Source: Candidatus Pelagibacter sp. HTCC7211 (GTDB taxonomy: Bacteria; Pseudomonadota; Alphaproteobacteria; Pelagibacterales; Pelagibacteraceae). Taken from it: a stretch of DNA of 32,000 nucleotides. Both the position numbers and the translations under genes were made by a program. The notes under the pieces were generated by a model. The model did not search any database, was not told the origin of the DNA, and worked only from the letters and a program-made list of their open reading frames with translations. The stretch is taken from the NCBI RefSeq assembly GCF_000155895.1, contig NZ_DS995298.1, positions 1,320,001-1,352,000 of the forward strand, written 5' to 3'. Numbering within the stretch: the first letter of the stretch is position 1; every line of letters starts with the position of its first letter. This document shows positions 1,398-27,704 of this stretch, one piece after another.

Positions 1398-2350
1398 TAT
1401 TTTTCAATAACACGAATAGGTTTACCATTTACACAAGCTTCAAGATCTTCAATCATTTGAGTATAATAGATGCTATAATTTTCAGCTGTCACATAACCAA
1501 TGTGAGGTGTTAATAATACATTGGGTAAAAATCTTAGCTTATTAGCCTCAGGCAGAGGTTCTTTTTCATAAACATCAATTCCAGCACCCATAATAACATT
1601 AGTAGATAAAGCAATAATCAAATCATCTTCATTAACTATTGGGCCACGCGCAGTATTAATTAAAAAAGCAGTTTTTTTCATTTGATCAAACTCTTTAATT
1701 GTGATGCAATCTTTGTAACGCTCTCCACCTTGTACGTGAATTGAAATATAATCTGACGTTTTAATTAAATCCTCTTTACTACAAGGCAGAACGTTTAATT
1801 CTTTACATTTATCTAAATCTAAATTTTCACTCCAAGCCATTACTTGCATACCAAATGCATTAGCAATTTTTGCAACTTGTGAACCTACTTTTCCAAGACC
1901 AATTAAACCAATAATTTTTCCTTTAAGCTCAAAACCAACTGTTGTTTGCCAATAACCTTGGTACATATTATCAATTTCTGTTTTTAAATTTCTTGATAAC
2001 CCTAAAATTAATGCCCAGGTTAATTCACAAGTTGGATTTGTATTGCTTTCAGTACCACAAACTATGATTTTTCTTTTTTTTGCAGCTTCAAGATCAACTG
2101 ATTTGTTTCGTACACCACTTGTAATTATATATTTAAGATCATTAAGATTATCGATTAAATTCTTAGAAATAGGTGTTCTTTCTCTCATTATCAATAAAGC
2201 CTCAAAATCAGCTAACTGTTCAATAGCATCTGCTTCATCAAGAAATGGTTCGCTAAAAATTTTAAACTCATATTTTCCAGACAATTTTTTAAGATCCACA
2301 AACTCTTGTGAAACGTTTTGGTAATCATCTAAAATTGCAACTTTAAGCAT
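1397..2350 (-). CDS. D-isomer-specific 2-hydroxyacid dehydrogenase, NAD-binding
   Basis: 317 aa. Rossmann motif GLIGLGKVGSQVA. Catalytic Arg/Glu/His context (NTARGPIV, DVYEKEP, TPHIGY). TAATG overlap with the downstream deacetylase start. Confidence 0.87.
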   Translation of the reverse strand: MLKVAILDDYQNVSQEFVDLKKLSGKYEFKIFSEPFLDEADAIEQLADFEALLIMRERTPISKNLIDNLNDLKYIITSGVRNKSVDLEAAKKRKIIVCGTESNTNPTCELTWALILGLSRNLKTEIDNMYQGYWQTTVGFELKGKIIGLIGLGKVGSQVAKIANAFGMQVMAWSENLDLDKCKELNVLPCSKEDLIKTSDYISIHVQGGERYKDCITIKEFDQMKKTAFLINTARGPIVNEDDLIIALSTNVIMGAGIDVYEKEPLPEANKLRFLPNVLLTPHIGYVTAENYSIYYTQMIEDLEACVNGKPIRVIEK

Positions 2351-3239
2351 TTGTAACTTTTTTGTTTGATAAAAATAAACCTAATATAATTAAAACAGAT
2401 CCAATGAAATGAAAAAATAAAAATTTTTCATTAAAAAAAATCATTGCAAAAATTGTACTGAATAATGGAATTAATGATAAAAAAATTCCAGCTCTATTAG
2501 CACCAATGATTGAGACTGCTCCAGCCCAGCAATAATAAGATCCAATGCTTGGAAAAATTGCAATATAGAGCAAAATGAAAATAAGATTACTATTAAGCTC
2601 AGTTGTTTTCCCTTGAGCTAACTCAAATAAAAAAGCTGGTAAAAGAATAATTAACCCAAATGTACAAACAACATGAACAAGAGAAAGTAAAGATATATCA
2701 AATGTTTTTTTTTTCAAAAATGCTGAATAAATACCCCATGATATTATTGCAATTATCATATAAATATCTCCCTTATTAAAATTTAAAGTTAATAAAATAT
2801 TTAAATCTAGACGTGTAATAATTGCCAGAATTCCTAGAACTGAAACAATTAAACCAGATATTTGATAAATATTTGTTTTTTCAATCTTAAGTAGAAAACA
2901 GACTAAAATTATTGATACAGGTATAGCGGTATTAAAAAGTGAAGCATTTATTACCTGCGTATAATTAAGGGCATTATAAGTGAACGCTGAAAATATACCA
3001 ACGCTGGTAAAACCTAAAATAAAAAATAATGGTAAATTATTTTTAACTTCTGTTTTTATTTTTGGAATTTCTTTGAAGGTAAAAGGTAACAATATTATCC
3101 AAACTAAAATCCATCTAAAAAAAGCTAATGAATATGGAGGTACATTCTCTGTGTACGCAAATTTACCAATAGTAAAATTTCCTGCCCAAAATAATGTTGC
3201 AAGAATTAGCATTGTATATGCTTTTGTGTTTTTATTCAT
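2343..3239 (-). CDS. EamA/DMT-superfamily permease (about 10 TM)
   Basis: 298 aa, hydrophobic throughout. Two repeated EamA-like halves (LATLFWAGNF... and ...ISWGIYSAFLKK). 8-nt overlap with the dehydrogenase start. Confidence 0.8.
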   Translation of the reverse strand: MNKNTKAYTMLILATLFWAGNFTIGKFAYTENVPPYSLAFFRWILVWIILLPFTFKEIPKIKTEVKNNLPLFFILGFTSVGIFSAFTYNALNYTQVINASLFNTAIPVSIILVCFLLKIEKTNIYQISGLIVSVLGILAIITRLDLNILLTLNFNKGDIYMIIAIISWGIYSAFLKKKTFDISLLSLVHVVCTFGLIILLPAFLFELAQGKTTELNSNLIFILLYIAIFPSIGSYYCWAGAVSIIGANRAGIFLSLIPLFSTIFAMIFFNEKFLFFHFIGSVLIILGLFLSNKKVTNA

Positions 3240-3722: not shown

Positions 3723-5960
3723 TTATTTGCCAATACCAATTATTGTTAAGTCATCATCAAGAATATCGTTATTTTCTTTTATGCCTTTTTCAGATATTTC
3801 TTTTTTCAAACTTCTAAGTCGAATTTCTTCAGTTGCATCTTCTAATTCTTTTTTAAGTAAAGAATTTTGGTGTTTAATGATTAATTCTTTAACGCCACTA
3901 ATACCTATTTCTTCTTTTTTTTCATTCATGCACTCAGAAAAACCATCAGTGAAACAATAAATTCTACCTCCATTGAGTTTGAAGCTTTCTAATTTATATA
4001 CACTTTCATCTTTATGTCTTGTAACTGCTAATGGAACTGAACTAGATGGAAATTCCTTAAACTCTTTATCGTTTCTTAACAATGCTGGTTGATGTCCAGC
4101 ATTTGCAATTTCTACTAAATCTGATTTTAAATTATATCTTCCAACAATTGAAGTTATAAATGTACCTCTCGGATTTGTTTCGTTTAAATCATTATTCATT
4201 TCAAATAAAATTTCATTAGGTCTAAATTTTTGTCTCGCAAAAATTTTAAATAATGTGATAGCTTTTGCCATGACCATCCCTGCATTAACACCTTTACCTG
4301 ATACATCTGATAACGTGAAATAAACTTCATCATCATGAAGAAAAAAATCATAAAAATCTCCTGAAATTTCTCTTGCTGGAATATTAAGACCAAATATAGG
4401 ATAGTGATCCATATCTCTTTTTGGCATTAAACGTTTTTGAACATCCATTGCGAGCTTGATCTCTTGAGAAACTCTGTTTTTCCATTTATTTTTTTGTTTT
4501 TCAGTTTGCTCTAGTCTGTCCATTAAAACATTATATTGAGTTCCAATAATACCACTATCCGTGAAAGGATCTTGTGGAGCTCTATTAGAATAGTCATCTG
4601 ATTTAGCTTGTTTTGTCAAAACTTCTAACAATTCATGTGTATCGGTTGATGCATTATGTTCTGAAATATTAAGACCCAACTCTTCTTGAATTTTTCCAAC
4701 TCTTAATGGAAAAAAAGAATTGATAGTTTTAAAAATTATATAAGACCCAAAAAAACAAAAACTTCCAATTGAAACAATTCCAATTAATTGAATTAATAAT
4801 TGCTCTAATCTTGTTTTTTCAACACCCATCATTTCAAAATTTCCAAATATAGCAACAGCAATAGTTCCCCAAATTCCAGAAGCTAAGTGGACAGGAATCG
4901 CACTCACTACATCATCAATTTTAATTTTTTCTAACAATACAATTGTTGAACCTGAAATGATTCCACCAATGCTTCCAATTACAATTGCATCAGATGGATC
5001 TACATAAGCGCATGATGCGGTTATAGAAACCAATCCTGCAAGAGGACCTGTTATCATGAATAACGGTTCAGGTTTTTTTAAAACAATTATTCCCATTATG
5101 CTTGAAAAAATAAGACCAAAAGAAGCTGATAAAAAAGTATTAATTAAAATTAATGGAATTTTTAAATCCATTGCTCCATTAGCGCCTCCATTAAATCCAA
5201 ACCAGCCAAACCATAAAATTAAAGCACCAAGTGCAGCAATTGGAGTATTGCTACCCTGAAAGGTCTTACTTAAGCTATCTTTTCTAAATCTTCCTGTTCG
5301 ATTACCTACAACTAATAAAACTGCAAGTGCAATCCATCCACCAACTGAATGGACAACCGAAGCTCCTGCAAAATCCAAATAACCCAATTTTCCAAGCCAA
5401 CCAAATTTCTCTGTTGGATTTTCAAAGTTAAATGCCCAAGACCAATGACCAACAATAGGATAAAAAAATCCTGAAGCAAAAAATGTAATAATCACGTAAG
5501 AAAAAAACCTTAATCTCTCAGCAACTGCACCAGATATAATTGTTGCAGCTGTAGCAACAAACATTGCTTGGAAAACAAAATAAGTCTGATAGCCAGCAAC
5601 TTTTGTAGTAAAAAAGAAAAACTTATTGCCAAACAATCCAGATACACTAGTTCCATACATTAATGCAAAACCAAATGCCCAAAAAATTACAACTGCAATA
5701 CCAAAGTCAGTTACATTTTTAAGAGCAACGTTAATACTATTTTTGTTTCGAGATAACCCAGTTTCCAAACACATAAACCCTGCTTGCATCAGAAAAACAA
5801 GGATTGCACAAATTAAAAGCCAAAAGGTATCTAGATTTGCTTGAAGGATTGCATCTAAACGAAATTCTAAAGCAGTTAAAGCTCCTTTGTTGGTAAGCTC
5901 TAATTGCTTAATACTTGACTGCAGCTTATTAAGCAAAATCTGGGTTTCAGCCGCAGTCAT
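3723..5960 (-). CDS. ammonium transporter (Amt/MEP) fused to a C-terminal SpoIIE/PP2C serine phosphatase domain
   Basis: 745 aa, ATG start. The Amt core spans aa ~45-440, with signature LDFAGASVVHSVGG and the second pore His in AIPVHLASGIWG. An Amt-type cytoplasmic tail follows (PLRVGKIQEELGLNISEH). After a helical linker, aa 505-745 (nt 3726-4448) carry PP2C motifs ISGDFYDF, LSDVSGKGVNAG, ANAGH, FTDGF and DDDLTIIG. Confidence 0.9.
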   Translation of the reverse strand: MTAAETQILLNKLQSSIKQLELTNKGALTALEFRLDAILQANLDTFWLLICAILVFLMQAGFMCLETGLSRNKNSINVALKNVTDFGIAVVIFWAFGFALMYGTSVSGLFGNKFFFFTTKVAGYQTYFVFQAMFVATAATIISGAVAERLRFFSYVIITFFASGFFYPIVGHWSWAFNFENPTEKFGWLGKLGYLDFAGASVVHSVGGWIALAVLLVVGNRTGRFRKDSLSKTFQGSNTPIAALGALILWFGWFGFNGGANGAMDLKIPLILINTFLSASFGLIFSSIMGIIVLKKPEPLFMITGPLAGLVSITASCAYVDPSDAIVIGSIGGIISGSTIVLLEKIKIDDVVSAIPVHLASGIWGTIAVAIFGNFEMMGVEKTRLEQLLIQLIGIVSIGSFCFFGSYIIFKTINSFFPLRVGKIQEELGLNISEHNASTDTHELLEVLTKQAKSDDYSNRAPQDPFTDSGIIGTQYNVLMDRLEQTEKQKNKWKNRVSQEIKLAMDVQKRLMPKRDMDHYPIFGLNIPAREISGDFYDFFLHDDEVYFTLSDVSGKGVNAGMVMAKAITLFKIFARQKFRPNEILFEMNNDLNETNPRGTFITSIVGRYNLKSDLVEIANAGHQPALLRNDKEFKEFPSSSVPLAVTRHKDESVYKLESFKLNGGRIYCFTDGFSECMNEKKEEIGISGVKELIIKHQNSLLKKELEDATEEIRLRSLKKEISEKGIKENNDILDDDLTIIGIGK

Positions 5961-5972
5961 AATTAAATTTTA

Positions 5973-6311
5973 TTAGTCTACTAATTTTCTAGCTTCCTCA
6001 GCGTCATTGATAATTTTATCAACACTTACAACTTTGATAACTTCAAAACCAGTTCCAAGAATAGCATTTTTATAATCTTCTTCTGTTAAATTTGATTTAT
6101 CAGTAAAAGAAGAAATGGCTACACCTTCTGGCCATGATACCTTCACATCAGCATTAGGACTTGCTGCCTGAAGTGCTTTAGTCACCATTTTTTGACACTT
6201 AATACACATCATGCCATTTACTTGGGCTATTTGTGATTGAGCTGCAAAAACATTTGTAGAAAATAATACTAACAATAAAGTAATAAATATTTTTTTCATA
6301 TTTGCTTTCAT
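5973..6311 (-). CDS. periplasmic heavy-metal-associated (HMA, MerP/CopZ-like) domain protein
   Basis: 112 aa. Signal peptide (ITLLLVLFSTNVFA/AQ) followed by the HMA metal-binding motif VNGMMCIKCQKMVTKAL. Alternative start at Met5 (nt 6299). Only 12 nt upstream of the Amt-PP2C start. Confidence 0.65.
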   Translation of the reverse strand: MKANMKKIFITLLLVLFSTNVFAAQSQIAQVNGMMCIKCQKMVTKALQAASPNADVKVSWPEGVAISSFTDKSNLTEEDYKNAILGTGFEVIKVVSVDKIINDAEEARKLVD

Positions 6312-6402: not shown

Positions 6403-6696
6403 CTATTCTTCAGTGTCTTTTTTTTTCCAAATATAGAAAAATATATATGGAGATAGAGCGGGTACAATTCCAAACCAAAACCATTCATCCCATCTAAAAC
6501 TTTTATCTAAAGTTGGTGCTTTTAAACCATTCCACCAAGTTAAATAACCAATAAAAATTATCCAGCCCAAACTTGCTGTGATAAAAATTTTTTGTTTTTG
6601 TGAAAAGTCTTGTTTTGTTAATTTTAAAAAAAATTCTTTTATGTTTTCTAAATTCATGCCCTTAACACTTTGCTGGATCTCTTCGTAAAGAACCAT
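6403..6696 (-). CDS. small 2-TM membrane protein, unknown function
   Basis: 97 aa as tracked. Two hydrophobic, Trp-rich segments. The ATG at 6696 overlaps the upstream pilin 3' end by 35 nt. The ATG at 6657 (MNLENIKEFF, 84 aa) avoids the overlap and may be the true start. Confidence 0.45.
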   Translation of the reverse strand: MVLYEEIQQSVKGMNLENIKEFFLKLTKQDFSQKQKIFITASLGWIIFIGYLTWWNGLKAPTLDKSFRWDEWFWFGIVPALSPYIFFYIWKKKDTEE

Positions 6697-7108
6697 CAGC
6701 TGTTAAAGTAATATTGCACCCATTAGAATTATCTTCCTCGACCGCATAAATCTTATAATTTGAAGCATGATCTGCAACACATATTAAATAACCTGCTGTT
6801 GCTTTTTTAGGGCTTACATTTGGATCAATAATAGATTTTGCTCCACCAAGTAATTCATTTTCAATAGCTTCAGATGTTGCAATTGATGGCGTGCAAGATG
6901 ACCCTGTGCCTGTGTAATAAATTGAATTAACTGAATAATACTCTGTTTGACCAAGAGATATTTGTCTCATGATATTTTCAGTTGATTTTTTTTTTGTAGA
7001 AGAAACGTAGCCGCTATAACTTGTAATACCAATAGCAGCAATAATACCTAGAATTGCTACAACAACCAAAAGTTCGATAAGGGTAAACCCGGAACTTTTG
7101 GTTGTCAT
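6662..7108 (-). CDS. type IV pilin (second pilin paralogue)
   Basis: 148 aa. Class III prepilin signal MTTKSSG/FTLIELLVVVAILGIIAAI with Glu5. Four Cys in the C-terminal globular part (possible two disulfides), with a C-terminal Cys. Confidence 0.87.
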   Translation of the reverse strand: MTTKSSGFTLIELLVVVAILGIIAAIGITSYSGYVSSTKKKSTENIMRQISLGQTEYYSVNSIYYTGTGSSCTPSIATSEAIENELLGGAKSIIDPNVSPKKATAGYLICVADHASNYKIYAVEEDNSNGCNITLTADGSLRRDPAKC

Positions 7109-7124
7109 AAAATTTATTTTTTAA

Positions 7125-7583
7125 TTATTCAATAGTAACTGTGTTAGTCTTCAAGTCCTCACCATTGGCTGGACAACTTGTTATAGTCACTGTTGTTCCA
7201 TTATCATCAACACTTGTTTGACCCTCTGTTGTAGCATTGCAAGCAGACAGTGTTGTGGTTACAATTGCAGAACTAGCAGTTGCATAAGGGTTTTTAAACT
7301 CAGTTGATAATGCTTCGTTAGTTGCCTTTTTAACAGTTCCTGAACTTTTTCTTTGAGAACAGGTTAATTTAGTACCCATTACTGAACTTTCGCCTATTTC
7401 ACATTTTTTAAGTTCAGCTGCCACATATTTAGTAACTGCAGCCTGGTTAGATTTAACCGCTGATTTTTTTGCGCCCGCTGTGTAACCTGAGTATGCAACT
7501 ACACCTACGGCAGCTAGAATTCCGATAATTGCTACAACAACTAGTAGCTCGATAAGAGTAAAACCTTTATTATTTTTTTTCAT
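7125..7583 (-). CDS. pilA: type IV major pilin PilA
   Basis: 152 aa. Prepilin leader MKKNNKG/FTLIELLVVVAIIGILAAVG with Glu5. Four Cys. Thr/Ser-rich C-terminal half. First gene after the divergent promoter region. Confidence 0.9.
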   Translation of the reverse strand: MKKNNKGFTLIELLVVVAIIGILAAVGVVAYSGYTAGAKKSAVKSNQAAVTKYVAAELKKCEIGESSVMGTKLTCSQRKSSGTVKKATNEALSTEFKNPYATASSAIVTTTLSACNATTEGQTSVDDNGTTVTITSCPANGEDLKTNTVTIE

Positions 7584-7743
7584 AATTAATTCCTATATTT
7601 TATAAGTAAACTTTATAAACCTTAATAGTTTTTGTAAAGCCAAGAAATTATGATAATTCTTCGCATTAGCAATGCCTTAATAGTCCAAAATGGGTGTTAA
7701 TACTAGCGTTTAATAAAAAATTAACGTAAAAAGAGCAAAAAAA
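7584..7743. promoter_or_regulatory. divergent promoter/operator region between pilA (-) and the STAS gene (+)
   Basis: 160-nt non-coding spacer between divergent ATG starts. It contains the only G/C-containing palindrome of the spacer, GCATT-agc-AATGC (7663-7675). No promoter hexamers can be assigned confidently against the AT-rich background. Confidence 0.4.
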
Positions 7744-8043
7744 ATGACTTATCAAGTTACAGAGGAAAATAATATTTCAACCGTATTTCTTAATGGTGAG
7801 ATCGATATGGACGTGACAGACAAAGCAAAGGACGTCATTTTGCCATTAATAGAAGCTGGTAAGGAAGTTCATATTAATCTTAAAGATGTTGAGTATATGG
7901 ACTCATCGGGTATTTCAGTGCTAATCGAAAGTCATCAAAAAGCAATGGAGCTTGGAACTAAAGTAACTCTAAAAGAAATCAGTAAATCTGTTCTTAAAGT
8001 AATTATGATGGCAAAACTAGAGCAGATCTTAAATTTAGATTGA
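7744..8043 (+). CDS. STAS-domain anti-sigma-factor antagonist (SpoIIAA/RsbV family)
   Basis: 99 aa. Conserved phospho-acceptor motif EYMDSSGISVL; Ser54 (nt 7903-7905) aligns by eye with SpoIIAA Ser58 in FMDSSGLGV. Confidence 0.9.
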   Translation: MTYQVTEENNISTVFLNGEIDMDVTDKAKDVILPLIEAGKEVHINLKDVEYMDSSGISVLIESHQKAMELGTKVTLKEISKSVLKVIMMAKLEQILNLD

Positions 8044-8453
8044 TGGATATTAAAGATCAAAAAGAGTTTCCCGTAGACTCGGCACAACTTAAAGAAGTAA
8101 GAAATTTTGCAAGAGGTTTATTTGATCAAGTTCCAGAATTTGAAGATAATAGAGAAGAATTAGTTTTAGCGTTAGCAGAAGCAGCTCAAAATATCGTCAA
8201 ACATGCTTATAGTGGTCAACCAAGTGGTGACACCATGAGAGTTGAAATTGAATATCAGGACAAAGTTTTAAAAATGGAATTATTTGATAAAGGCAAACCT
8301 GTTATCCCAGAAAATATTAAACCCAGAAAATTAACGGATATTAAAGCTGGAGGATTAGGTACTTTTTTTATCGGACAAATAATGGATGAAGTTGTTTTTA
8401 AAACTAATAAAGAAGATTGGGTAAATCACTTAATCTTAACCAAAAGATTTTAA
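8043..8453 (+). CDS. anti-sigma-factor-type serine protein kinase (SpoIIAB/RsbW family, GHKL ATPase)
   Basis: About 136 aa. N-box AEAAQNIVKHAY, G1-like FDKGKP, G2 box GGLGTFFIGQIMDEV. The track starts at TTG 8040. ATG 8043 gives a TGATG overlap with the STAS stop, suggesting translational coupling. Confidence 0.85.
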   Translation: MDIKDQKEFPVDSAQLKEVRNFARGLFDQVPEFEDNREELVLALAEAAQNIVKHAYSGQPSGDTMRVEIEYQDKVLKMELFDKGKPVIPENIKPRKLTDIKAGGLGTFFIGQIMDEVVFKTNKEDWVNHLILTKRF

Positions 8454-9691
8454 CTACCAATAATAGAACCAACGTTAAAGATTGGTGAATACATCGCAAT
8501 CATCAATCCACCGATCATAGTTCCCATAAAAACAATCATGATTGGCTCAATCAAACTCGACATATTGTCAACAGCAGTATCAAATTCTTCTTCATAGTAA
8601 GCTGATACTGAATTAAACATTTCATCTAAATTTCCAGTTTGTTCACCAACAGAAATTAATTGACTAAATGTTGCAGGAAAAACTGGTTCTTTTAAAAATA
8701 ATTTTGTTAAAGTGTCACCTGAGAATACTCCTTTTTTTACATTTTCTAATGCTTGTGTAACTACATCATTGTTACTTACTGATTTTGCAATCTCAATACT
8801 CTCTAATAAATTTACACCTGCAGCACTTAGATTTCCCATAATAAGAGAAACTCTTGCAATCAATGATTTTAAAATCATATCACCAAATACTGGCATTTTT
8901 AAAACTTGTTGATGCCATTTATATCTAACAGCTGGTATTTTAGTAGTTGTGTATTTAAAGATGATATAAGTAATAAGACATACAATACCAAGTGTAAGAC
9001 CGCCACTACCTCGCATAAAATTACTAGCAGTCATAATAACTGCGGTTGGTGTAGGAAGAGCTACACCCATTCCTTCATACATTTTTGCAAAAACTGGAAC
9101 AACTTTGATTAACATGAAAACCATCACAGTTATTGCAACTGAAAACATCACAACAGGATAAGTAAGAGCACCTTTGATCTTCTTTTTAACTTTTTCCCTT
9201 TTTTCAAGAGACTCTACTAATTTTAATAAGAACGTATCTAGTTTACCGCTGGCTTCACCAGCTTTAATTAAATTGATATAAACACTATCAAAAATCTTTG
9301 GATATCTCTCAAAACACTTAGATAAAGTAATCCCTCCCTCAAGGTTTTTTCTTACATCTTCAATAATTTCTTTCATTGTCGGGTGCTCTATTTGATCTCT
9401 TAACATCGTAAGTACATTTAAGATAGGAAGTCCAGCCTTAACCATGGTTGCAAATTGTTTTGAAAAAATCATCACATCTTCTGGTTTGACTGCTTTTTTA
9501 CCAAAAGAAAAACCTCCACCTTTTTTCTTTTCTTTTTCTGCTTTTTTCTTTTTAACTTTTGTAAGATTAGTAATGATTACTTTTTGCTCTTTAAGTTTAA
9601 ATGAAGCTTCCTCTTGATTGAGAGCTTCTATCTCACCTTCAATATATTTTCCTGCTGATATGCCTTTGTATGAAAATGTTTCTGCTGACAT
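8450..9691 (-). CDS. pilC: type IV pilus platform protein PilC (GspF family)
   Basis: 413 aa. Duplicated GspF domains (FSKQFATMVKAGLPIL... and ...FSQLISVGEQTGNLDEMF), 3 TM segments, C-terminal PIFNV. Convergent with the kinase gene, 4-nt overlap. Confidence 0.95.
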   Translation of the reverse strand: MSAETFSYKGISAGKYIEGEIEALNQEEASFKLKEQKVIITNLTKVKKKKAEKEKKKGGGFSFGKKAVKPEDVMIFSKQFATMVKAGLPILNVLTMLRDQIEHPTMKEIIEDVRKNLEGGITLSKCFERYPKIFDSVYINLIKAGEASGKLDTFLLKLVESLEKREKVKKKIKGALTYPVVMFSVAITVMVFMLIKVVPVFAKMYEGMGVALPTPTAVIMTASNFMRGSGGLTLGIVCLITYIIFKYTTTKIPAVRYKWHQQVLKMPVFGDMILKSLIARVSLIMGNLSAAGVNLLESIEIAKSVSNNDVVTQALENVKKGVFSGDTLTKLFLKEPVFPATFSQLISVGEQTGNLDEMFNSVSAYYEEEFDTAVDNMSSLIEPIMIVFMGTMIGGLMIAMYSPIFNVGSIIGS

Positions 9692-9698
9692 TTTTGAT

Positions 9699-11447
9699 TT
9701 ACTCCGAACTTAATACCCGGTCAAATTCTCTAAAATTTAAATCGCCAGTTAAAATTAATTCTCGACCCATATCTTGCATAGTTCTAAATCCTTCTTTCAT
9801 TGCAATTTCTTTAAGTTCAGGCGTTGTTGCTTTTCTTAAAATTGCTTCTTTAATAGGTTTAGAAACACTTAAAATTTCATAAATACCCATTCGACCTTTG
9901 TAACCTGAGTCTTTACATTGAGAACAACCTTCTCCCTTTTGAACTTTAGCTCTTGAAGCTTGTTCTACTGTAAAACCAAAATCAGCAAGTGCTTTAGGAG
10001 TAATATCTTCATCAGGTACTCTACAGTTTGGACAAGTTTTTCTAGCAAGTCTCTGAGCAAGAATTAAACTTACAGCAGCACTAATCAGATAATCTGGTGT
10101 TCCCATGTTTTGTAATCTAGTAATTGAACTTGGGGCATCATTAGTGTGAAGAGTGCTAAATACTAAGTGACCTGTAAGTGCAGCCTTCAAACCTATATCA
10201 ACGGTTTCTTTATCCCTCATCTCTCCAACTAGAATAATCTCTGGGTCTTGTCTTAAAAAAGATCGAAGTGCTCTTTGGAAATCATAACCAATATCATCTT
10301 TAATTTGAACTTGTCCAACTCCATCCAATTCATACTCAACAGGATCTTCTGCGGTTAAAATGTTTAAGTGTGGTTTAGATACCTCTTTTAAAATACTATA
10401 AAGTGTAGTTGTTTTACCAGAACCTGTTGGACCAGTAACCAAAACTAATCCTTGAGTACCATGAATTGCTTTTCTTAAATTTTTTAAATCTTGTTCTTCA
10501 AAGTTTAATTGTTCTAAACTAATATCTCCAGCATCTTTGTTAAGAACCCTCATTACAATTCTTTCATTAGTTGCTGTTGGCAGAATTGATAAACGAAGGT
10601 CGACAACTTTTCCATCTATTTTAAATGGAATTGCTCCGTCTTGTGGTAAACGTCTTTCAGCAATATCCAATTTACCCATAATCTTAAATCTTGTTACAAC
10701 CGCACCATAATTTGAGTGTAAAAATTTCGCAAAATGTTCTTGCTCTGTAAGAATTCCATCAAGTCTATATCTAACCCTTGAACTAAATCGATATGGCTCA
10801 ATATGAATATCAGACACTCCTGATTTAATTGCTTCTGCAACAACTGCTGTACTGAATTTAATTACATCAGATTCATTTTCAATTGCTTCTATATCCTCTT
10901 CAGGTTTTTCATCCAAAAGTTCAGCGCTTTCATCAACATCGTAATCAAATGTTTTGATTTTTTCTTGATTTGCCTGCTGAATTGATTGCATGGTAGTTTC
11001 ACCCTCTGCAGATAATCTGTCAATATGAGCTGAAATATCTGACAATTTTGCAGCATGAAGCTCAATATCTTTCTTGGTAATTGTTTTTAAGTTTCTCATT
11101 AAGCTTAATTTTGAACTATCTGGAATTGCAATATGTAAAACGTTACCCTCAATTTTAAAAGGAGCTATGAAATTCATGTTTATGTAATTTGAAGGTAGCA
11201 CAGACTTTATTTCATCTGAAATTTCAGAACTTGCTAAATCAGCTATATCTAATGATTGCTCTTTAACTAATAAATCTAAAATTTTATCTTCATCAGTTAA
11301 GTTTAATTCAAATACAGCATCAATTTGTGATTTATCACCATCAGATGATTTTTTTTTAATATCAATTAAATCTTTACCAGAAATTACATCTTGATCGATT
11401 AAGATGTTTATTAAATTAATTTCCGACTCTCTACTAATCTTGATCAA
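9699..11447 (-). CDS. pilB: type IV pilus assembly ATPase PilB (GspE family)
   Basis: 582 aa. Walker A VTGPTGSGKTT, Asp box, Walker B ILVGEMRD, His box STLHTND, tetracysteine zinc motif CPNC...CSQC. The tracked start is TTG overlapping the pilQ stop, so the start codon is uncertain. Confidence 0.94.
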   Translation of the reverse strand: MIKISRESEINLINILIDQDVISGKDLIDIKKKSSDGDKSQIDAVFELNLTDEDKILDLLVKEQSLDIADLASSEISDEIKSVLPSNYINMNFIAPFKIEGNVLHIAIPDSSKLSLMRNLKTITKKDIELHAAKLSDISAHIDRLSAEGETTMQSIQQANQEKIKTFDYDVDESAELLDEKPEEDIEAIENESDVIKFSTAVVAEAIKSGVSDIHIEPYRFSSRVRYRLDGILTEQEHFAKFLHSNYGAVVTRFKIMGKLDIAERRLPQDGAIPFKIDGKVVDLRLSILPTATNERIVMRVLNKDAGDISLEQLNFEEQDLKNLRKAIHGTQGLVLVTGPTGSGKTTTLYSILKEVSKPHLNILTAEDPVEYELDGVGQVQIKDDIGYDFQRALRSFLRQDPEIILVGEMRDKETVDIGLKAALTGHLVFSTLHTNDAPSSITRLQNMGTPDYLISAAVSLILAQRLARKTCPNCRVPDEDITPKALADFGFTVEQASRAKVQKGEGCSQCKDSGYKGRMGIYEILSVSKPIKEAILRKATTPELKEIAMKEGFRTMQDMGRELILTGDLNFREFDRVLSSE

Positions 11448-12994
11448 TCTAATACCCTAGGTGCTATAAATATTAATAACTCTTCAAGCTTATCTTCCTT
11501 CTTTTTGTATTTTAAAAGATTTCCAATTACAGGAACATTTCCTAAGCCTCCTGGAACTTGTTCTTTAGCTTTTGATATATTATTAGATTTTATTCCACCG
11601 ATTACAACTATATCTCCATCTGCAACTAAAAGTTTTGTAATTATTTCCATTTTTGTAATTGGAGGTTCGTCTTGTGAAGTGTCGGCATCATCGTTATTTA
11701 CTTGTATATCTAATAAAACGTTTCCATCTCCAATAATACTTGGTGTAACTTGAAGTTTTAAAGCAGCTTCTTTAAATGAAGTTGAAGTTGTGCCTTCTGA
11801 TGTTGTTTCATAAGGAATTTCTTTACCTTGTGTAACTGAGGCAGGCTGATTATTTATAGTAAAAACTTTTGGATTTGAAATTGTCTCGACCATGCCCATT
11901 TTCTCTAAAGCTGTAATTTCAGCTTTTAAAACTGCAGAACCAGTCTTCTTTAATATACCAATACCGCTAGTAGCACCTGTTGCTGCAAAATTTGTAATTT
12001 GATCTTTTGCAACTTGAGCAAGAGCAGCAGAAGTATCATCGAGTGTTCCAGCGGAACTTGTTGAACCAACTATACCACCGATTTGCTCATCATTTCTTTT
12101 ATAATAACCGCCTAACCTTGTGCCTAATTGTTTTTCAAATTCAGATGTAGCTTTTACAACGAATGCTTCGATTAAAACTTGCTCTGTTTTAATATCAATT
12201 TCATTTAAGACTTTATCAACTGTATCAAGATCTCTTTCTTTACCTCTAACAATAATTGATCTGGTTGCTGTTTCTTCTGTAATTTTTATTGGAGAATATG
12301 CATTTTCACCTGTGCTTTTAAACAACTCTTCAATTGTAGATTTTGCTAAAGCTGGTGAGATATAATAAAGTCTAAATATTTCTGAGATAATTGGTTCAAC
12401 ACTATCTTCTAACTCTACTTTGTTTTTAACAGCTTGAGCTCTCTCTGATTTATAAGTTTCTTGAGATGTTAATGTTTCAGGTGAATGAACTCTTATTAAA
12501 TTACTATTTACATCTATATCAGATGCATAATTTTTCATATCTAATAAAGCTTGAAAAGCTTTATCCCATGGAACGTCTACTAACTCTGCAGAAATTGCAC
12601 CAGCAACTTCATCTCCAACTAAAACGTTAATTTCACCAATTTTTCCCATCAATTTCATAGTCTCTTTATAATCAAGATTTTTAAATTTTAGGGTTACTCT
12701 TTGTTTTAAAGATTTATATTCATCAGGAATTAACAAGTAATTTCTTGTAGTTTCTGAAGTAATCTTTTTTCTTTTTCTTTGAACTTTTTTATTCCCTGGT
12801 ACTGGTTTAGGGCCCATCTCAAGAGTTTTAGCAATTTCAGCTTTACCCAAAGCTTTCATATCTTTTTTTATTAAAGGTGTATTATGCTTAAATGGCTGAT
12901 TATATTTTTTTGCAAATTGAGTATTAGCACAACCACTTAGAACAAATCCTAAAATTATAACAATCGACAAATTAAAGAGTTTTTTAATATTCAT
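11444..12994 (-). CDS. pilQ: type IV pilus secretin PilQ
   Basis: 516 aa. Lipoprotein-type signal (LGFVLSG-C). Lys-rich linker, N-domains, and a C-terminal secretin domain ending VPGGLGNVPVIGNLLKYKKKEDKLEELLIFIAPRVL. I recognise no AMIN domain. Confidence 0.9.
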   Translation of the reverse strand: MNIKKLFNLSIVIILGFVLSGCANTQFAKKYNQPFKHNTPLIKKDMKALGKAEIAKTLEMGPKPVPGNKKVQRKRKKITSETTRNYLLIPDEYKSLKQRVTLKFKNLDYKETMKLMGKIGEINVLVGDEVAGAISAELVDVPWDKAFQALLDMKNYASDIDVNSNLIRVHSPETLTSQETYKSERAQAVKNKVELEDSVEPIISEIFRLYYISPALAKSTIEELFKSTGENAYSPIKITEETATRSIIVRGKERDLDTVDKVLNEIDIKTEQVLIEAFVVKATSEFEKQLGTRLGGYYKRNDEQIGGIVGSTSSAGTLDDTSAALAQVAKDQITNFAATGATSGIGILKKTGSAVLKAEITALEKMGMVETISNPKVFTINNQPASVTQGKEIPYETTSEGTTSTSFKEAALKLQVTPSIIGDGNVLLDIQVNNDDADTSQDEPPITKMEIITKLLVADGDIVVIGGIKSNNISKAKEQVPGGLGNVPVIGNLLKYKKKEDKLEELLIFIAPRVLD

Positions 12995-13454
12995 CTGCCT
13001 CTCTTATCTGGTTGTTGAAATCAATAATAATAAAAGATTTATCTTCTTTTTCGAAGATAGCCTCTGTTAATCTTAAATCTATAAATTTTATTTTTCCTAA
13101 ATACTGATTGAGATTTAAAGTAATAACGTCTCCTGATGTATTTGTTAAACTTATATAACTTTCATCTTTACCTGAAATTAAACCTGATAATTTAAAATTA
13201 TACAAACTCATTTCGTCTCTCTCTTCACCAGTTTCTGGATTTACTGTTGAGCTTCCCATTCCTTCATTACCAGCAAACGGATCGTTTAAAGGAACTTCGT
13301 CCTCATCTACTTGGCTTTGTTTGCTTTCAATTTCTTTTGTAATTTCTTTTGCTTTTTCTACTAACTCAGTATTAGTGCTATGATTATCTGCAAAAACATT
13401 TGTGTATGATAGTAACAGTATGGTTATGATTAAAAATTTCTTAAAAGAATTCAT
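12984..13454 (-). CDS. pilP: PilP-like pilus assembly protein
   Basis: 156 aa. Signal peptide (no lipobox Cys), acidic linker, C-terminal beta-domain (LYNFKLSGLISGKDESYISLTNTSGDVITLNLNQYLG). Position between pilO and pilQ. Overlaps both neighbours (14 nt and 11 nt). Confidence 0.6.
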   Translation of the reverse strand: MNSFKKFLIITILLLSYTNVFADNHSTNTELVEKAKEITKEIESKQSQVDEDEVPLNDPFAGNEGMGSSTVNPETGEERDEMSLYNFKLSGLISGKDESYISLTNTSGDVITLNLNQYLGKIKFIDLRLTEAIFEKEDKSFIIIDFNNQIREADEY

Positions 13455-14091
13455 CGGGTATACCTACTATTGTTAATTCTCCTTGTGCAATAATCGCTCC
13501 AGTTGAATCATTTTGTACAATACTTATAGTCTCTTTGTCAAAGTTTAACATTTTGCTAGATTTGGCTATAGATCTCTTAAACTTGATATATCCAAGGAAA
13601 TTGCCTTTAATCTCGTATTCAACAGGTATTTTATAATATGAAATATCTGTTTTTTTCAATAGCTCCTCTGCTTGTTGAGCTACTCCACTTTTTAAAACTG
13701 GTTTAGGTTTTTTCTTTTGAATTTTAGAAATAGTTAAACCATTCACACCAGCATACTTACTTAAGCTCTGATACAATCCTTCAACTTCTTCTTTAGAATG
13801 AAATAACGTAGAACTTTTTTTAAACTCAGGCTCAAGTTTTTTTAATCTCTTTTTATTTAGAATAATTTCATTTTCAAATTGAACAATTTCGTTTTGCTTT
13901 AAAACTTTTTCATCATACAGGGCTTTTTTATTTTTAACGATTGGATTTAAAATAGCGTAATAACCAATTAAAAAAATAATAATTGCTGCAAAACCAATCC
14001 CAAATTTTATTAATGTTTTTTTATCAATTGCTTTAAGCTTTTCTTTTAAATCACCAACATTAATATTTTTTAAATCTACATTTAAATCCAT
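13441..14091 (-). CDS. pilO: PilO-like bitopic pilus alignment protein
   Basis: One TM (FGIGFAAIIIFLIGYYAIL), then a coiled coil, then a C-terminal alpha/beta domain, in the pilN-pilO-pilP position. The tracked start 14112 is TTG. ATG at 14091 (MDLNVDL...) forms a TAATG overlap with the pilMN stop and is preferred. Confidence 0.6.
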   Translation of the reverse strand: MDLNVDLKNINVGDLKEKLKAIDKKTLIKFGIGFAAIIIFLIGYYAILNPIVKNKKALYDEKVLKQNEIVQFENEIILNKKRLKKLEPEFKKSSTLFHSKEEVEGLYQSLSKYAGVNGLTISKIQKKKPKPVLKSGVAQQAEELLKKTDISYYKIPVEYEIKGNFLGYIKFKRSIAKSSKMLNFDKETISIVQNDSTGAIIAQGELTIVGIPDEFF

Positions 14092-15806
14092 TATGCGCTC
14101 TCCAATATACAAGCTACAACAAACCCTTTCATTGTGGGAGCATTTTGCGATTGCCCATCAGGAAGAGTCATTGTTGCTAATGATGCTTGCTTAATTAATT
14201 TTTTATTATTTAAATTACTTATTAATTTTAATATATCTTGGTCACTAAATGCTGAGCCTTTTATAACAATTTGACTTGAGCCATTATACTCAACTGATTC
14301 AAACTTTACTCTTTTTGGCACTGCTGAGGCAATTTGAGCCAATACTCTAAAACTTGCAGTTTTATTTGACTTAATCGATTTACTAATCTTGAGTGACTTT
14401 AATATTATACCAACATCTTTTTCTAGTTTATTTTTTTCAAGAGTTCTAAGCTCATGAGTTTGAACGATTTCATCATAATCTACTAACTTTCCATTTAATT
14501 CTTTGATTTGCCAAAATGACAATCCAAACAATGCTATATAAATTAATGAAACAACTCCAATTACACCTTTGAATGCAAAATTTGAAAACACTTTTGCTTT
14601 CTTTTGAGCCATCATGCTGTCTCTATTTGGAAGAAGGTTAATATTTTTTACTGCTGTTACAAATTTGTAATAACCAAAAACATCTAACTTTCTAAATGCT
14701 AAACCAATCACTGTTGAGAAGTATGATCTATTTTGATAATTAACACTTTCCTCTAATTGTGCAGGAACTTTAATTTCTTTAATAGGATCTAATAAATCAA
14801 AACCAGTATTAGCTAAACTTTTTCTAAAAGTTTCAAGATAAGTATCAACATTAGTTAAATTTGAGACAACTTTTAAATTTCTAATTCTTTTTTCATATTT
14901 TGTTTCAAAATCTTGTATCGCTTGTTTAACTTGGGTTACATATCTTCTAACCAAAGCATCCATATCTTCTTGGTTATCAGAATTTAAAAGCGTATTTCTG
15001 TCTTGGCCTCTTATAAATATATCTGTAATAATTGGATTATTTTCATATAAAATCATTACATAATTTTCATCCAATCCAAATTCTAGAACTGCAGTAAGAT
15101 TACTCTCTTCAATTGATCCACCAAGTTGATTGATTTGGTCAACAGCAGATTTAAGTGCAAAACATTTTACATCAATAATAACTGCATTAAGACCACCTTT
15201 TTTAATTATCGATGTGTAACTATTAATATCTGAAAGTTTTGAGGCAACGAACAAGATATCCATAGTATTGCCAGTGGTATCTCTATTAATAACTTGATGA
15301 AAAACTGAGTAATCATTTAGATTATCAGTAAGTTGAACTAAATTTTCCCAAAGTGAATCAGTATCAATTGCTTTATTTAATTCTTCGTCAGTCATTAAGG
15401 GTGCAGTCACTACTCTTATGATTGCACTTGTAACTGGAATGGCTATTGCAGCATTTGATGTTTGTATTTTAGATTTTTGTAAAGCAATTTGTAATTGTTC
15501 CCCATACTTATCTGGTTCATCTAATACGTTTGAATTCGCATCTGCATCCTCAATTTTATGAGTAAAAAATTTTTCTAAAACCCACTTATTTGATTTGTCA
15601 GTCGATAATTGAGCTAATCTTATTTCTGTGGGGGTTAGCTCTACTCCAACAATTTCTTCACCTTGAACAGCAGATTTTCCTAACCTGTTTTTAAAGAATT
15701 TACTAAAAAATCCTTCTTTCTTTTTTTTATCTTGAGCTTGTGGGACGGGTGTTCCCTCATCACCTTTCGGTTTTTTTTTAAAAAGATTTGCAAAAGGATT
15801 TTTCAT
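14091..15806 (-). CDS. pilM: fused PilM (actin-like ATPase fold) - PilN protein
   Basis: 571 aa. After a basic ~50-aa N-terminus, aa ~50-378 look like PilM (IVGVELTPTEIRLAQL..., IIDVKCFAL). The hallmark PilN N-terminal motif INLLP is internal (aa 389-393, nt 14628-14642). It is followed by the PilN TM (GVIGVVSLIYIALFGLSFW) and a periplasmic domain. Confidence 0.8.
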   Translation of the reverse strand: MKNPFANLFKKKPKGDEGTPVPQAQDKKKKEGFFSKFFKNRLGKSAVQGEEIVGVELTPTEIRLAQLSTDKSNKWVLEKFFTHKIEDADANSNVLDEPDKYGEQLQIALQKSKIQTSNAAIAIPVTSAIIRVVTAPLMTDEELNKAIDTDSLWENLVQLTDNLNDYSVFHQVINRDTTGNTMDILFVASKLSDINSYTSIIKKGGLNAVIIDVKCFALKSAVDQINQLGGSIEESNLTAVLEFGLDENYVMILYENNPIITDIFIRGQDRNTLLNSDNQEDMDALVRRYVTQVKQAIQDFETKYEKRIRNLKVVSNLTNVDTYLETFRKSLANTGFDLLDPIKEIKVPAQLEESVNYQNRSYFSTVIGLAFRKLDVFGYYKFVTAVKNINLLPNRDSMMAQKKAKVFSNFAFKGVIGVVSLIYIALFGLSFWQIKELNGKLVDYDEIVQTHELRTLEKNKLEKDVGIILKSLKISKSIKSNKTASFRVLAQIASAVPKRVKFESVEYNGSSQIVIKGSAFSDQDILKLISNLNNKKLIKQASLATMTLPDGQSQNAPTMKGFVVACILESA

Positions 15807-15955
15807 ATAATCATTATAAGTTTAGCTATCATTATAATATAATATTAATTAATCAACTAATACTCGAATTTGATATCTTTGTGTTTATTATGGGCTAAAT
15901 TATTATTTTAAGAGTTAATTATTTAAAAAATGTAGTACTAAAGTGAATAATTATT
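15807..15955. promoter_or_regulatory. divergent promoter region between pilMN (-) and pilT (+)
   Basis: 149-nt spacer between divergent ATG starts. It carries a 10-bp direct repeat ATCATTATAA at 15810-15819 and 15828-15837. The repeat contains TATAAT on the minus strand. Confidence 0.35.
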
Positions 15956-16972
15956 ATGTTTGAAAAATTAGAAGAGCTTGCAAAAAATAATAAGAAGATT
16001 TCAGATTTTCATATTAGATCTGGATCTCCTTTAGCATACAGACAAACAGGTGAAATTATAAAAGTAGCTGACACAAATGTTACTGCTCAAGATTTAAAAG
16101 ATTTAATATCGATGAACTGTAATGAAGCTGAGACTGCAAGATTTAATGAAACTCACGAACTAGACTCAGCTGTAATGTTAAGTGGTTTAAGATTTAGAGC
16201 AAATTTTTATAAAACAATTAATGGTCCAGCTGCTGTTCTTAGAAGAGTTGAAAGTAAAATTCCAGATATGGATCAATTTAATTTACCTCAAGCATTATAT
16301 GATATCGTAGATTTTCATAAAGGTTTAGTTTTAGTAACTGGACCAACTGGCTCAGGAAAATCTACAACTCTTGCAGCGATCGTAAATGAAATTAATAAAA
16401 CTAGAACTTCAAATATTATAACTGTTGAAGATCCAGTAGAATTTATTCATAAAGACAATCAAAGTATTGTCTCACACAGAGAAGTTGGAAAACAAACTCA
16501 ATCATTTTCAGCAGCTTTAAAAGCAGCATTAAGAGAAGACCCTGATGTTATCTTAGTTGGAGAAATGAGAGATCTTGAAACAATCAGTTTAGCTTTAACA
16601 GCTGCTGAAACAGGACACTTAGTTTTTGGAACTTTGCACACAAGTGGTGCACCAAGTACCATCAATAGAATTATTGATGTATTTCCTCCTGAACAACAAG
16701 AACAAATCCGTGCGCAAATTTCAACTTCATTAAAAATGGTAGTTACTCAAAGATTACTTAAAACTAGAGATGGTCAAGGTAGAGTTGGTGCATTTGAAAT
16801 AATGAAGTGTACTCCACCAGTTCAAAACTTAATTAGAGAAGCAAAAATTCATCAAATTCCAAGTATCATGCAAACAGCAGTTAGAGATGGAATGATTACT
16901 ATGGAAAAATCTCTGGAGGAATTAGTTAAATCAGGTAAAATAGATCCAGGTGCAGCAAAATCAGGACATTAA
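15956..16972 (+). CDS. pilT: twitching-motility retraction ATPase PilT
   Basis: 338 aa. Walker A VTGPTGSGKST, Walker B ILVGEMRD, His box GTLHTSGA, and a PilT-type C-terminal helix motif VQNLIREAKIHQIPS. Confidence 0.95.
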   Translation: MFEKLEELAKNNKKISDFHIRSGSPLAYRQTGEIIKVADTNVTAQDLKDLISMNCNEAETARFNETHELDSAVMLSGLRFRANFYKTINGPAAVLRRVESKIPDMDQFNLPQALYDIVDFHKGLVLVTGPTGSGKSTTLAAIVNEINKTRTSNIITVEDPVEFIHKDNQSIVSHREVGKQTQSFSAALKAALREDPDVILVGEMRDLETISLALTAAETGHLVFGTLHTSGAPSTINRIIDVFPPEQQEQIRAQISTSLKMVVTQRLLKTRDGQGRVGAFEIMKCTPPVQNLIREAKIHQIPSIMQTAVRDGMITMEKSLEELVKSGKIDPGAAKSGH

Positions 16973-17666
16973 AGGTTTTACTCTTTTAGAATTATTGGTT
17001 GTAATTTCACTTGTTGCAATCATCTCAGCAGTTGCATATCCAAATTTTTCATCATGGAAAAAAGAAAGAGAAGTAAGATCAGCAACAGAAAAAATTGCTG
17101 GTATGATTTCAAATGTTGCAACTCAAACACAAAGAGGAAATTTTTCTTACTCTCAATTTTGGGTTCTACCCGTGCCAAACCAAAGCACCGTTTTTTTTAC
17201 TAAAGGAATGAAAAAAAATAATTTTACATCACTAATTAACTCTGGAGCGACACCAACTTGTAGAAGAGTTCAAAGTGGTCACTGGGATAGTTTAAATGAT
17301 AAAAAAATAAATATCATGGGAACTACATTTAGAGATTATTATGAAGTTTATGATCCAGAGTCTGGTATTGATAATATTGAAGTTGCAACACACTTAAGTC
17401 TAGATTCTGCTATTTGTTTTGGAACTAATGGAAGTTACTATAAAGCTGTTAATGGTTTATCAAAAGGAAGTAATACTAATATTAATATAGAGGGCGCACC
17501 AACTGCTAATTACATAATTATCTGCACTTTAGATAATGCTAAAGCATTTGGTAATAAATGCCCAAGAAAATTAGGGCTTGAAAGACCAGCATATTTGGTA
17601 AAATGGTCAAGATTTGGTAACGTTACCAAATATAAATGGAGTGGAAGTGATTGGAATAGACAGTAA
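16950..17666 (+). CDS. minor pilin, GspH/FimT/FimU-like
   Basis: 238 aa. GTG start overlaps the pilT 3' end by 23 nt. Prepilin signal (M)QQNQDIKG/FTLLELLVVISLVAIISAVAYPNF with Glu5. Confidence 0.72.
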   Translation: MQQNQDIKGFTLLELLVVISLVAIISAVAYPNFSSWKKEREVRSATEKIAGMISNVATQTQRGNFSYSQFWVLPVPNQSTVFFTKGMKKNNFTSLINSGATPTCRRVQSGHWDSLNDKKINIMGTTFRDYYEVYDPESGIDNIEVATHLSLDSAICFGTNGSYYKAVNGLSKGSNTNINIEGAPTANYIIICTLDNAKAFGNKCPRKLGLERPAYLVKWSRFGNVTKYKWSGSDWNRQ

Positions 17667-19795: not shown

Positions 19796-19870
19796 AGTTT
19801 TATGAGACCTATAATGAGTATTAAATTAATAGACCAATAATCAAAAAATTATTATGATAATCAAATTATA

Positions 19871-27671: not shown

Positions 27672-27704
27672 TTTATTTAAGTTACTTTAGAACAATTTTT
27701 AAAA

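Follow-up and report, generated by a model that had tools for sequence, protein, structure and literature searches.

The window analysed here, a 32,000-nucleotide stretch of the genome of Candidatus Pelagibacter sp. HTCC7211 with a GC content of ~30%, contains a type IV pilus (T4P) locus in which two small genes on the forward strand code for a STAS protein of the RsbV/SpoIIAA type (99 amino acids; 7744-8043) and a serine kinase with the SpoIIAB/RsbW fold (136 amino acids; 8043-8453), a pair that we interpret as the core of a partner switch. The pair is flanked on one side by two prepilin genes, pilA2 (6662-7108; 148 amino acids, N_methyl E-value 2.3e-8) and pilA1 (7125-7583; 152 amino acids, N_methyl 1.1e-10), the latter of which is the candidate for the major prepilin and retains its position in the loci of relatives. 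On the other side lie the genes for the platform protein PilC (8450-9691; T2SSF 1.3e-60) and the assembly ATPase PilB (9699-11447; T2SSE 1.4e-124), and all four flanking genes are encoded on the reverse strand. The original prediction, made from the letters of this stretch, had likewise located the pair between pilA and pilC and had recognised three genes for SpoIIE/PP2C phosphatases with Amt, CHASE2 and GAF input domains in the same locus; all three are recovered with Pfam scores above the cut-off and with their catalytic motifs retained. The gene map was derived from a listing of open reading frames (ORFs) and from Pfam scans, which covered nearly all long ORFs. No match to the sigma-factor, PilS/PilR or Chp families was obtained among the scanned ORFs, in agreement with the earlier claim that the window holds no sigma factor, PilS/PilR or Pil-Chp gene, a 298-amino-acid membrane protein (2343-3239; by eye a DMT/EamA-type transporter) lying outside the scans.

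The STAS protein matches Pfam PF01740 with 56.2 bits (cut-off 22.6, E-value 3.2e-15) and passes the NCBIfam model for anti-sigma factor antagonists, TIGR00377 (69.2 bits against a cut-off of 53.45), and it misses the SpoIIAA equivalog TIGR02886 (42.5 against 114.75). It was aligned to RsbV (PDB 6m36) at an E-value of 5e-10. Ser54 of its YMDSSG motif, the predicted phospho-acceptor (tca codon, 7903-7905), aligns with the phospho-serine of Bacillus subtilis RsbV (YMDSTG, 6m36_B) and with that of SpoIIAA (FMDSSG), so that both the ORF and the phospho-site that had been proposed for it are upheld.

The ATG of the kinase gene (8043) shares one base with the TGA of the STAS gene (8041-8043), and through the resulting TGATG overlap the kinase is predicted to be translationally coupled to the STAS gene. 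The encoded protein is 100% identical to a 136-amino-acid HTCC7211 entry named "anti-sigma regulatory factor (Ser/Thr protein kinase)" and matches HATPase_c_2 (PF13581) at 1.1e-21. Its N-box residues E46, N50 and H54, the G1 residue D82 and the G2 residues G103-G106 are invariant among relatives down to 32% identity, which corroborates the coupled SpoIIAB/RsbW-type kinase of the original prediction. The AlphaFold2 (AF2) model of the kinase (predicted local distance difference test, pLDDT, 87.9) has SpoIIAB as its best match with a template modelling (TM) score of 0.81, and RsbW is matched with TM scores of 0.72 (query-normalised) and 0.84 (target-normalised); SiaB-SiaC is also among the structural matches. 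The RsbW equivalogs NF003144 (48.7 against 145) and TIGR01924 (40.1 against 155) and the SpoIIAB equivalog TIGR01925 (28.5 against 135) are all missed and, because of this, the kinase is best classed, by profile score, as a member of the broad RsbW/SpoIIAB family and the orthologue of neither. There is no cognate sigma gene in the kinase operon, the convergent pilC gene being the next one in the window and in all 80 of the related loci described below.

Experimental data that bear on the pair are available for the SAR11 strain HTCC1062, whose phosphoproteome comprises 1014 Ser/Thr/Tyr sites on 555 proteins and in which RsbW (SAR11_0057), itself detected in the proteome, is the only annotated Ser/Thr kinase (PMC13198564). 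STAS proteins and pili are absent from the main text of that study. In the available part of its Supplementary Table 3, the phosphopeptides DVPYMDSSGISIIIESNQR (AAZ20880) and NVALNLSNVQYMDSSGISVLIESHQK (AAZ20881) are recorded with 883 and 1199 spectra, respectively, and their localised forms are pS54; the other phosphopeptides there mostly have 1-20 spectra and the next highest count is 432 (PMC13198564). Low-count phosphosites are recorded in the same part of the table on PilB (T543) and PilT (T286, S52). Both STAS proteins are encoded just upstream of RsbW, and the accessions and peptide matches in these entries give the order pilin, STAS, STAS, RsbW, PilC-position protein and PilB-position protein for HTCC1062; a peptide of AAZ20884, QATTPELR, resembles ATTPELK of the window PilB. 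Ser54 is shown by these data to be phosphorylated in vivo in the HTCC1062 orthologues, and it is presumably phosphorylated also in HTCC7211, where the STAS protein is identical to AAZ20881 over YMDSSGISVLIESHQK, the 16 residues around Ser54.

Relatives of the kinase were collected in a scan with one genome per species. This yielded 373 relatives, and the loci of the best 80 of these, all from Pelagibacteraceae, each from a different species and with kinase identities of 53-99%, were examined for gene order by tblastn with the window proteins. The order pilA2-pilA1, STAS-kinase, pilC-pilB-pilQ is found in all 80 loci wherever the contig reaches. The same order, with pilD preceding, is retained in a Pelagibacter lineage with a kinase of 38% identity, and in a marine lineage (L087) with a kinase of 46% identity the kinase gene adjoins those for a CHASE2 protein and pseudopilin-like proteins. 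A different layout is seen in a further marine contig (L094, 37.5% GC), where pilD, CHASE2-PP2C, kinase and STAS genes form one operon that is followed by genes for a pilin, PilT and minor pilins; the pilD/CHASE2-PP2C junction of this operon is kept in the window, with overlapping stop and start codons. A survey of gene neighbourhoods in relatives had been set as a test by the original prediction, and in each of the relatives that were examined gene order supports a linkage between the STAS-kinase pair and T4P genes. Sigma genes were not seen near the pair in more than 90 related loci, which were screened with the window proteins or precomputed Pfam hits only.

Within this sample the STAS protein is the most conserved product of the locus, with a median identity of 82.8% across 75 SAR11 loci, as compared with 56.9% for the kinase. 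Its identity exceeds that of the kinase in all 75 loci and equals or exceeds that of PilB in 54 of 71. Such conservation would be expected if a small protein had to accommodate a kinase, several phosphatases and a conserved effector, and it fits a role of the STAS protein as the putative output hub. A second STAS gene was not found in the 78 SAR11 loci that reach the STAS gene, each of which has one, as does HTCC7211; two STAS paralogues, both heavily phosphorylated in the available phosphopeptide entries, occur in HTCC1062.

The three candidate phosphatases are an Amt-SpoIIE fusion (Amt-PP2C; 745 amino acids, 3723-5960, reverse strand; Ammonium_transp 6.8e-107), a membrane sensor phosphatase with a CHASE2 domain (CHASE2-PP2C; ~670 amino acids, 27705-29717, reverse strand; CHASE2 4.8e-50) and a cytoplasmic sensor phosphatase with a GAF domain (GAF-PP2C; 430 amino acids, 30652-31944, forward strand; GAF_2 2.2e-11). 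The SpoIIE domain (PF07228) is above the cut-off in each of them, at 4e-28, 1.7e-31 and 1.5e-40, respectively. The SGD, DVSGKG, TDG and DD metal-binding motifs are kept in all three domains, the invariant PP2C residues being D49, D67, G70-K71-G72, D185 and D235-D236, and all three catalytic motif sets are intact. Amt-PP2C sits in a same-strand gene array downstream of the pilins and is a plausible ammonium sensor. A full-length orthologue is present within ~2-4 kb of the kinase in 35 of the 80 loci, and in 29 of the 80 CHASE2-PP2C is found no more than 7 kb from it. Where the upstream flank spans 7 kb or more, Amt-PP2C, CHASE2-PP2C or both are always present, in full length, within 7 kb of the kinase gene. 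In many loci pilM-N is followed by GAF-PP2C, ~9 kb downstream.

Two Amt-PP2C paralogues occur side by side near the pilins in several loci (L007, L008, L018, L059 and others), with ~72-89% and ~54% identity to the window protein, which matches the arrangement of SAR11_0049 and SAR11_0050 in HTCC1062. That Amt proteins of Pelagibacter bear a SpoIIE domain was recorded in 2010 (PMC2944026), and SAR11_0049 and SAR11_0050, which are located a few genes upstream of the HTCC1062 STAS-RsbW genes, are probably those two SpoIIE-bearing Amt proteins. The phosphoproteome study states that SAR11 is without an annotated phosphatase predicted to act on proteins (PMC13198564), as against the three SpoIIE genes of the window and the SpoIIE-bearing Amt proteins.

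The CHASE2-PP2C gene is directly preceded by that for the prepilin peptidase PilD (29714-30475, reverse strand; A24_N_bact 5.3e-33, Peptidase_A24 6.5e-21), the stop codon of which overlaps the CHASE2-PP2C start. It is followed on the same strand by genes for a 446-amino-acid protein with TPR and beta-barrel-like regions (26331-27671), a 190-amino-acid FecR-domain protein (25772-26344; FecR 1e-11) and a 330-amino-acid Ser/Thr-rich protein (24780-25772), and within this array (24780-30475) the genes overlap by 1-14 nucleotides. The CHASE2-PP2C, FecR-domain and 446-amino-acid proteins form a triad that moves together in ~29 SAR11 loci and in the divergent Pelagibacter locus L084, and the 446-amino-acid, FecR-domain and 330-amino-acid proteins likely constitute an envelope sensing module that feeds CHASE2. 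The array recalls FecA-FecR cell-surface signalling, but it ends in a PP2C phosphatase rather than in an extracytoplasmic function (ECF) sigma factor.

Outside SAR11, the kinase has its nearest relatives in the C-terminal domains of ~570-amino-acid proteins in which GAF, SpoIIE and kinase domains are fused. The N-terminal 425 residues of one such fusion (P0170) are matched by the entire window GAF-PP2C (40% identity, E-value 2e-119), and in a Myxococcota metagenome-assembled genome (MAG; L093) unfused GAF-PP2C, kinase and STAS genes are three consecutive genes of one operon. The PP2C genes would thus appear, on the three independent lines of neighbourhood, gene fusion and shared operons, to belong to the same system as the STAS-kinase pair, and their linkage to the pair, for which the original prediction had proposed a survey of relatives, is borne out on each of these lines. 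In the gammaproteobacterial and myxococcotal MAGs concerned, GAF-PP2C and kinase, fused or separate, are followed by a YIDSSG STAS gene (L089 10001-15292, L090 7801-13208, L093 5706-10936), after which come an MlaE gene and those for an ABC ATPase, for MlaD and for an auxiliary lipoprotein. Compared with their window counterparts, the GAF-PP2C proteins are 36-40% identical, the kinases 37-40% and the STAS proteins 31-38%, with Y[IM]DSSG kept. These modules are the closest sequence relatives of the window system outside SAR11 and share its STAS phospho-motif; they differ from it in that phosphatase and kinase are often fused, pilus genes are absent and the STAS gene immediately precedes those for MlaE, the ABC ATPase and MlaD, which is the MlaB position. 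MlaB is a STAS protein that binds the MlaF ATPase, and from its gene position the STAS protein of these modules seems to be a lipid-transporter subunit of the MlaB type that is regulated by phosphorylation. We found no description of such a GAF-PP2C/kinase/STAS/Mla module.

The remainder of the locus is largely made up of pilus genes. PilC, PilB, PilQ, a PilP-position protein, PilO and a PilM-PilN fusion are encoded on the reverse strand (8450-15806), and the part of the core machine that follows PilB, from PilQ to PilT (11444-16972), is recognised by Secretin, PilO, PilM_2 and PilN, and T2SSE matches, with PilT (15956-16972; T2SSE) on the forward strand. The 156-amino-acid PilP-position protein is without a Pfam match. 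PilM and PilN are joined in one 571-amino-acid protein (14091-15806) with a Lys-rich N-terminal extension, and this protein reaches 769 amino acids in the divergent lineage L081. The MshEN domain of PilB occupies residues 66-150 (3.6e-14) and its first motif seems degenerate by eye. MshEN domains of MshE-type ATPases bind cyclic di-GMP; that of PilB could serve as a docking site for another regulator. Downstream of PilT, minor pilins, a 177-amino-acid protein without a family match and a giant protein in the PilY1 position are encoded on the forward strand (16950-24558); the last of these (20404-24558; 1384 amino acids), preceded by the 177-amino-acid protein, has weak NHL and VWA matches only. 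A small membrane protein (6403-6696, reverse strand) and a 112-amino-acid HMA-like protein (5973-6311, reverse strand; weak HMA match, signal peptide, CxxC) are encoded between the pilins and Amt-PP2C. The latter shows 66-98% identity in 15 loci, and its homologue in L084 adjoins the kinase gene.

The STAS gene is transcribed divergently from pilA1, the two being separated by a 160-bp intergenic region (7584-7743), as read from the sequence. At its other end the pair converges on pilC, with the stop codons of kinase and pilC overlapping by 4 nucleotides (8450-8453) in the window and by 8 nucleotides in L081, and no terminator-like site occurs at the window junction (8450-8453). Transcripts from either side must enter the other gene in antisense. 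A scan of 7050-8700 returned eight promoter-like sites, as against 7.2 expected, and no terminators, and is uninformative because the DNA is AT-rich. No family was matched in an Rfam scan of the window.

The partner switch has strong comparative and indirect experimental support, and we assign a probability of roughly 0.6 to the reading that the pair is a working RsbV/RsbW-type partner switch of the SAR11 T4P locus, without a sigma gene of its own. The probable role of the switch is to set the timing of pilus production. The kinase would phosphorylate Ser54 of the STAS protein with ATP, as the in vivo phosphorylation of the HTCC1062 orthologues suggests for HTCC7211, and would hold it phosphorylated and inactive as long as ATP is plentiful and the phosphatases are idle. 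The sensor PP2C proteins encoded in the locus would dephosphorylate it, a role to which the gene fusions, shared operons and conserved neighbourhood point. Amt-PP2C may report ammonium, CHASE2-PP2C may relay an envelope signal together with the FecR-domain protein and its outer-membrane partner (the 446-amino-acid protein), and GAF-PP2C may report a cytoplasmic ligand. Kinases of the RsbW/SpoIIAB family are ATP-dependent, and low cellular ATP may also favour the unphosphorylated STAS protein. Such an ATP dependence would explain the abundant pili and raised pilA mRNA of HTCC1062 under dark, energy-starved conditions (PMC3090418).

The unphosphorylated STAS protein would be the output of the switch, acting on the pilus machinery or on gene expression, or titrating the kinase away from such a target; pilus gene expression, motor proteins or a sigma factor could each be this target. 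The conservation of the STAS protein, the MlaB position of its relatives and the lack of a sigma gene favour the STAS protein as the output, as has been proposed for HmpV, RbaV and SypA. More tentatively, and as a possibility that we would not call probable, the unphosphorylated STAS protein may bind PilB, PilC, PilM-N or PilT and directly license or block pilus assembly; PilC and PilB, whose genes come next after the pair, are candidate targets. If this direct gating were true, pilus production would be set post-translationally by ammonium, an envelope signal, a ligand and ATP, with no transcription factor, and a T4P motor gated by a STAS phospho-switch would have been shown for the first time.

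It is unlikely that the kinase is instead an anti-sigma factor that sequesters RpoH or RpoD, from which the unphosphorylated STAS protein frees the sigma factor, with the pilus genes making up no more than a part of the regulon. In its fold and key residues the kinase does match SpoIIAB and RsbW, including the equivalent of SpoIIAB Arg20, and RpoH, which is present in SAR11, falls into one sigma group with sigma-B and sigma-F. The groESL genes are a classic sigma-32 regulon, and groESL and pilA rise together in dark-starved cells, which leaves room for a sigma target. In Chlamydia, which is without a sigma-B-like factor, the primary sigma factor is described in a review (PMC8256260) as being under reported RsbW control. 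Against such a role, no sigma gene is found beside the pair in the >90 loci, most of them screened only with the window proteins, and the kinase scores below the cut-offs of the RsbW and SpoIIAB equivalogs. The relatives closest to it carry a fused phosphatase and stand beside transport machines, as in systems where the STAS protein is the output, and the kinase evolves much faster than the STAS protein, which would be unexpected of a protein gripping a highly conserved sigma factor. Still less probable is a general Ser/Thr kinase with many substrates, mainly regulated by the STAS protein and placed in the pilus locus for historical reasons. The 1014 sites on 555 proteins with a single annotated kinase (PMC13198564) and the low-count phosphosites on PilB and PilT in the available table entries speak for it; yet the STAS phosphopeptides exceed nearly all others in those entries by one to two orders of magnitude, and the strict pil synteny in a streamlined genome argues against a chance position. 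Kinases of the SpoIIAB/RsbW type show high specificity towards their STAS partner, which also tells against it. At least one other abundant site (AAZ21424, the peptide with 432 spectra in the same part of the table) looks like a mutase-type active-site phospho-serine and hence like a phospho-enzyme intermediate. That the pair and the phosphatases have no functional link to pili and merely travel with a mobile or variable pilus island is very improbable. Close SAR11 relatives differ in whether they have the T4P region (PMC12789548), as this would have it, but the linkage persists to 38% kinase identity, survives rearrangements in L084 and L087 and recurs in the different operon layout of L094.

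Several observations weigh against a pilus-dedicated partner switch. The kinase, as the sole Ser/Thr kinase, may have wider roles. Footprinting of the pilA/STAS intergenic region across 71 loci gave no conserved motif, and neither an operator nor a sigma-32-type promoter could be called. In the wider family, the PP2C/kinase/STAS triad is found together with Mla-like ABC transporters, from which it follows that the association with a given machine is flexible. In L084 (Pelagibacter, kinase identity 42%) a solo kinase occurs without an adjacent STAS gene. This kinase is flanked by the CHASE2-PP2C/FecR-domain/446-amino-acid triad and, on the other side, by a pilin, with PilT nearby; a 33-residue remnant of the PilC C-terminus (10386-10484) directly follows it, and neither pilC nor pilB adjoins it on the contig. 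It would seem from this that the assembly genes have decayed locally and that kinase and CHASE2-PP2C were retained. On the other side of the balance, piliation in SAR11 is conditional, which we count in favour of the partner switch.

The original prediction had added that no characterised T4P system was wired in this way. This was overstated, as HmpU/HmpV/HmpW of Nostoc punctiforme, which likewise combines a PP2C phosphatase with a STAS protein and a serine kinase, controls the development of hormogonia, filaments with T4P-driven motility, and HmpV, the STAS protein, is regarded as the output with an undefined target (Riley et al. 2018, as described in PMC6495340 and PMC8256260). The part that stands is that HmpU/V/W is not described there in a pil operon; it is a separate signalling system with one phosphatase in a host with many sigma factors, whereas the SAR11 pair lies between pilA and pilC and is joined by three phosphatases (Amt, CHASE2, GAF) in a host with two. 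RbaV/RbaW with RbaY of Rhodobacter capsulatus is similarly alphaproteobacterial and without an identified sigma target, and the unphosphorylated STAS protein RbaV (Ser56/57) is the output, affecting a horizontal-gene-transfer function and motility genes; as described in the same review (Mercer and Lang 2014, via PMC8256260), it differs in having no pilus-locus linkage and other sensor inputs. The Bacillus switches RsbU/V/W (sigma-B) and SpoIIE/AA/AB (sigma-F) share the folds, the phospho-serine motif, the N, G1 and G2 boxes and the PP2C motifs, but in SAR11 no sigma gene follows the kinase, the scores are far below the equivalog cut-offs and the sensor domains of the phosphatases are unrelated. 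RsbU/RsbV1/RsbV2/RsbW of Chlamydia resembles the SAR11 system in its reduced genome, the lack of a sigma-B-type factor and a debated output, and has two STAS paralogues, as does HTCC1062; it differs in belonging to an obligate intracellular pathogen, in having no pilus linkage and in its reported primary sigma factor target. SypE/SypA of Vibrio fischeri, HsbR/HsbA and SiaA/B/C/D of Pseudomonas aeruginosa and BtrU/V/W of Bordetella, with a STAS or STAS-like output, share the logic whereby a phosphatase and a kinase act through a STAS protein on a non-sigma output. They differ in their outputs (polysaccharide, diguanylate cyclase, type III secretion) and architectures, and none is embedded in a T4P operon.

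The SAR11 PP2C/kinase/STAS triad is a candidate member of this sigma-independent class, no dedicated sigma gene being found among the scanned ORFs of the window or seen in the related loci screened. The earlier supposition of a streamlined host with very few sigma factors also holds: HTCC7211 belongs to SAR11, for which RpoD and RpoH only are reported (Giovannoni 2005, as cited in PMC13198564), a literature figure that we adopt for the genome-level count. What is new is the embedding of the pair between pilA and pilC, a position conserved across the Pelagibacteraceae sampled, and its combination with three sensor phosphatases (one of them fused to Amt, another forming a CHASE2 module together with FecR-domain and outer-membrane partners) in a two-sigma host. 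No description of this wiring was found in the literature searched.

SAR11, the most abundant bacterium of the ocean, has very few regulators, and its pili, which are formed only by energy-starved cells, have no known regulator, their role and control being described as open questions (PMC12789548). The switch is a concrete candidate regulator of SAR11 pili, with ammonium, an envelope signal, a small ligand and ATP as its inputs, and the three PP2C proteins of the locus, together with the very abundant phosphopeptides of the STAS proteins, the presumed natural substrates of the kinase, would explain the phosphatase gap noted for the SAR11 phosphoproteome (PMC13198564). PII proteins are lacking in SAR11, and direct gating, if true, would provide a nitrogen-sensing route in an organism without them. 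Beyond SAR11, the Mla-linked modules suggest that direct control of membrane machines by STAS phospho-switches is commoner than has been recognised.

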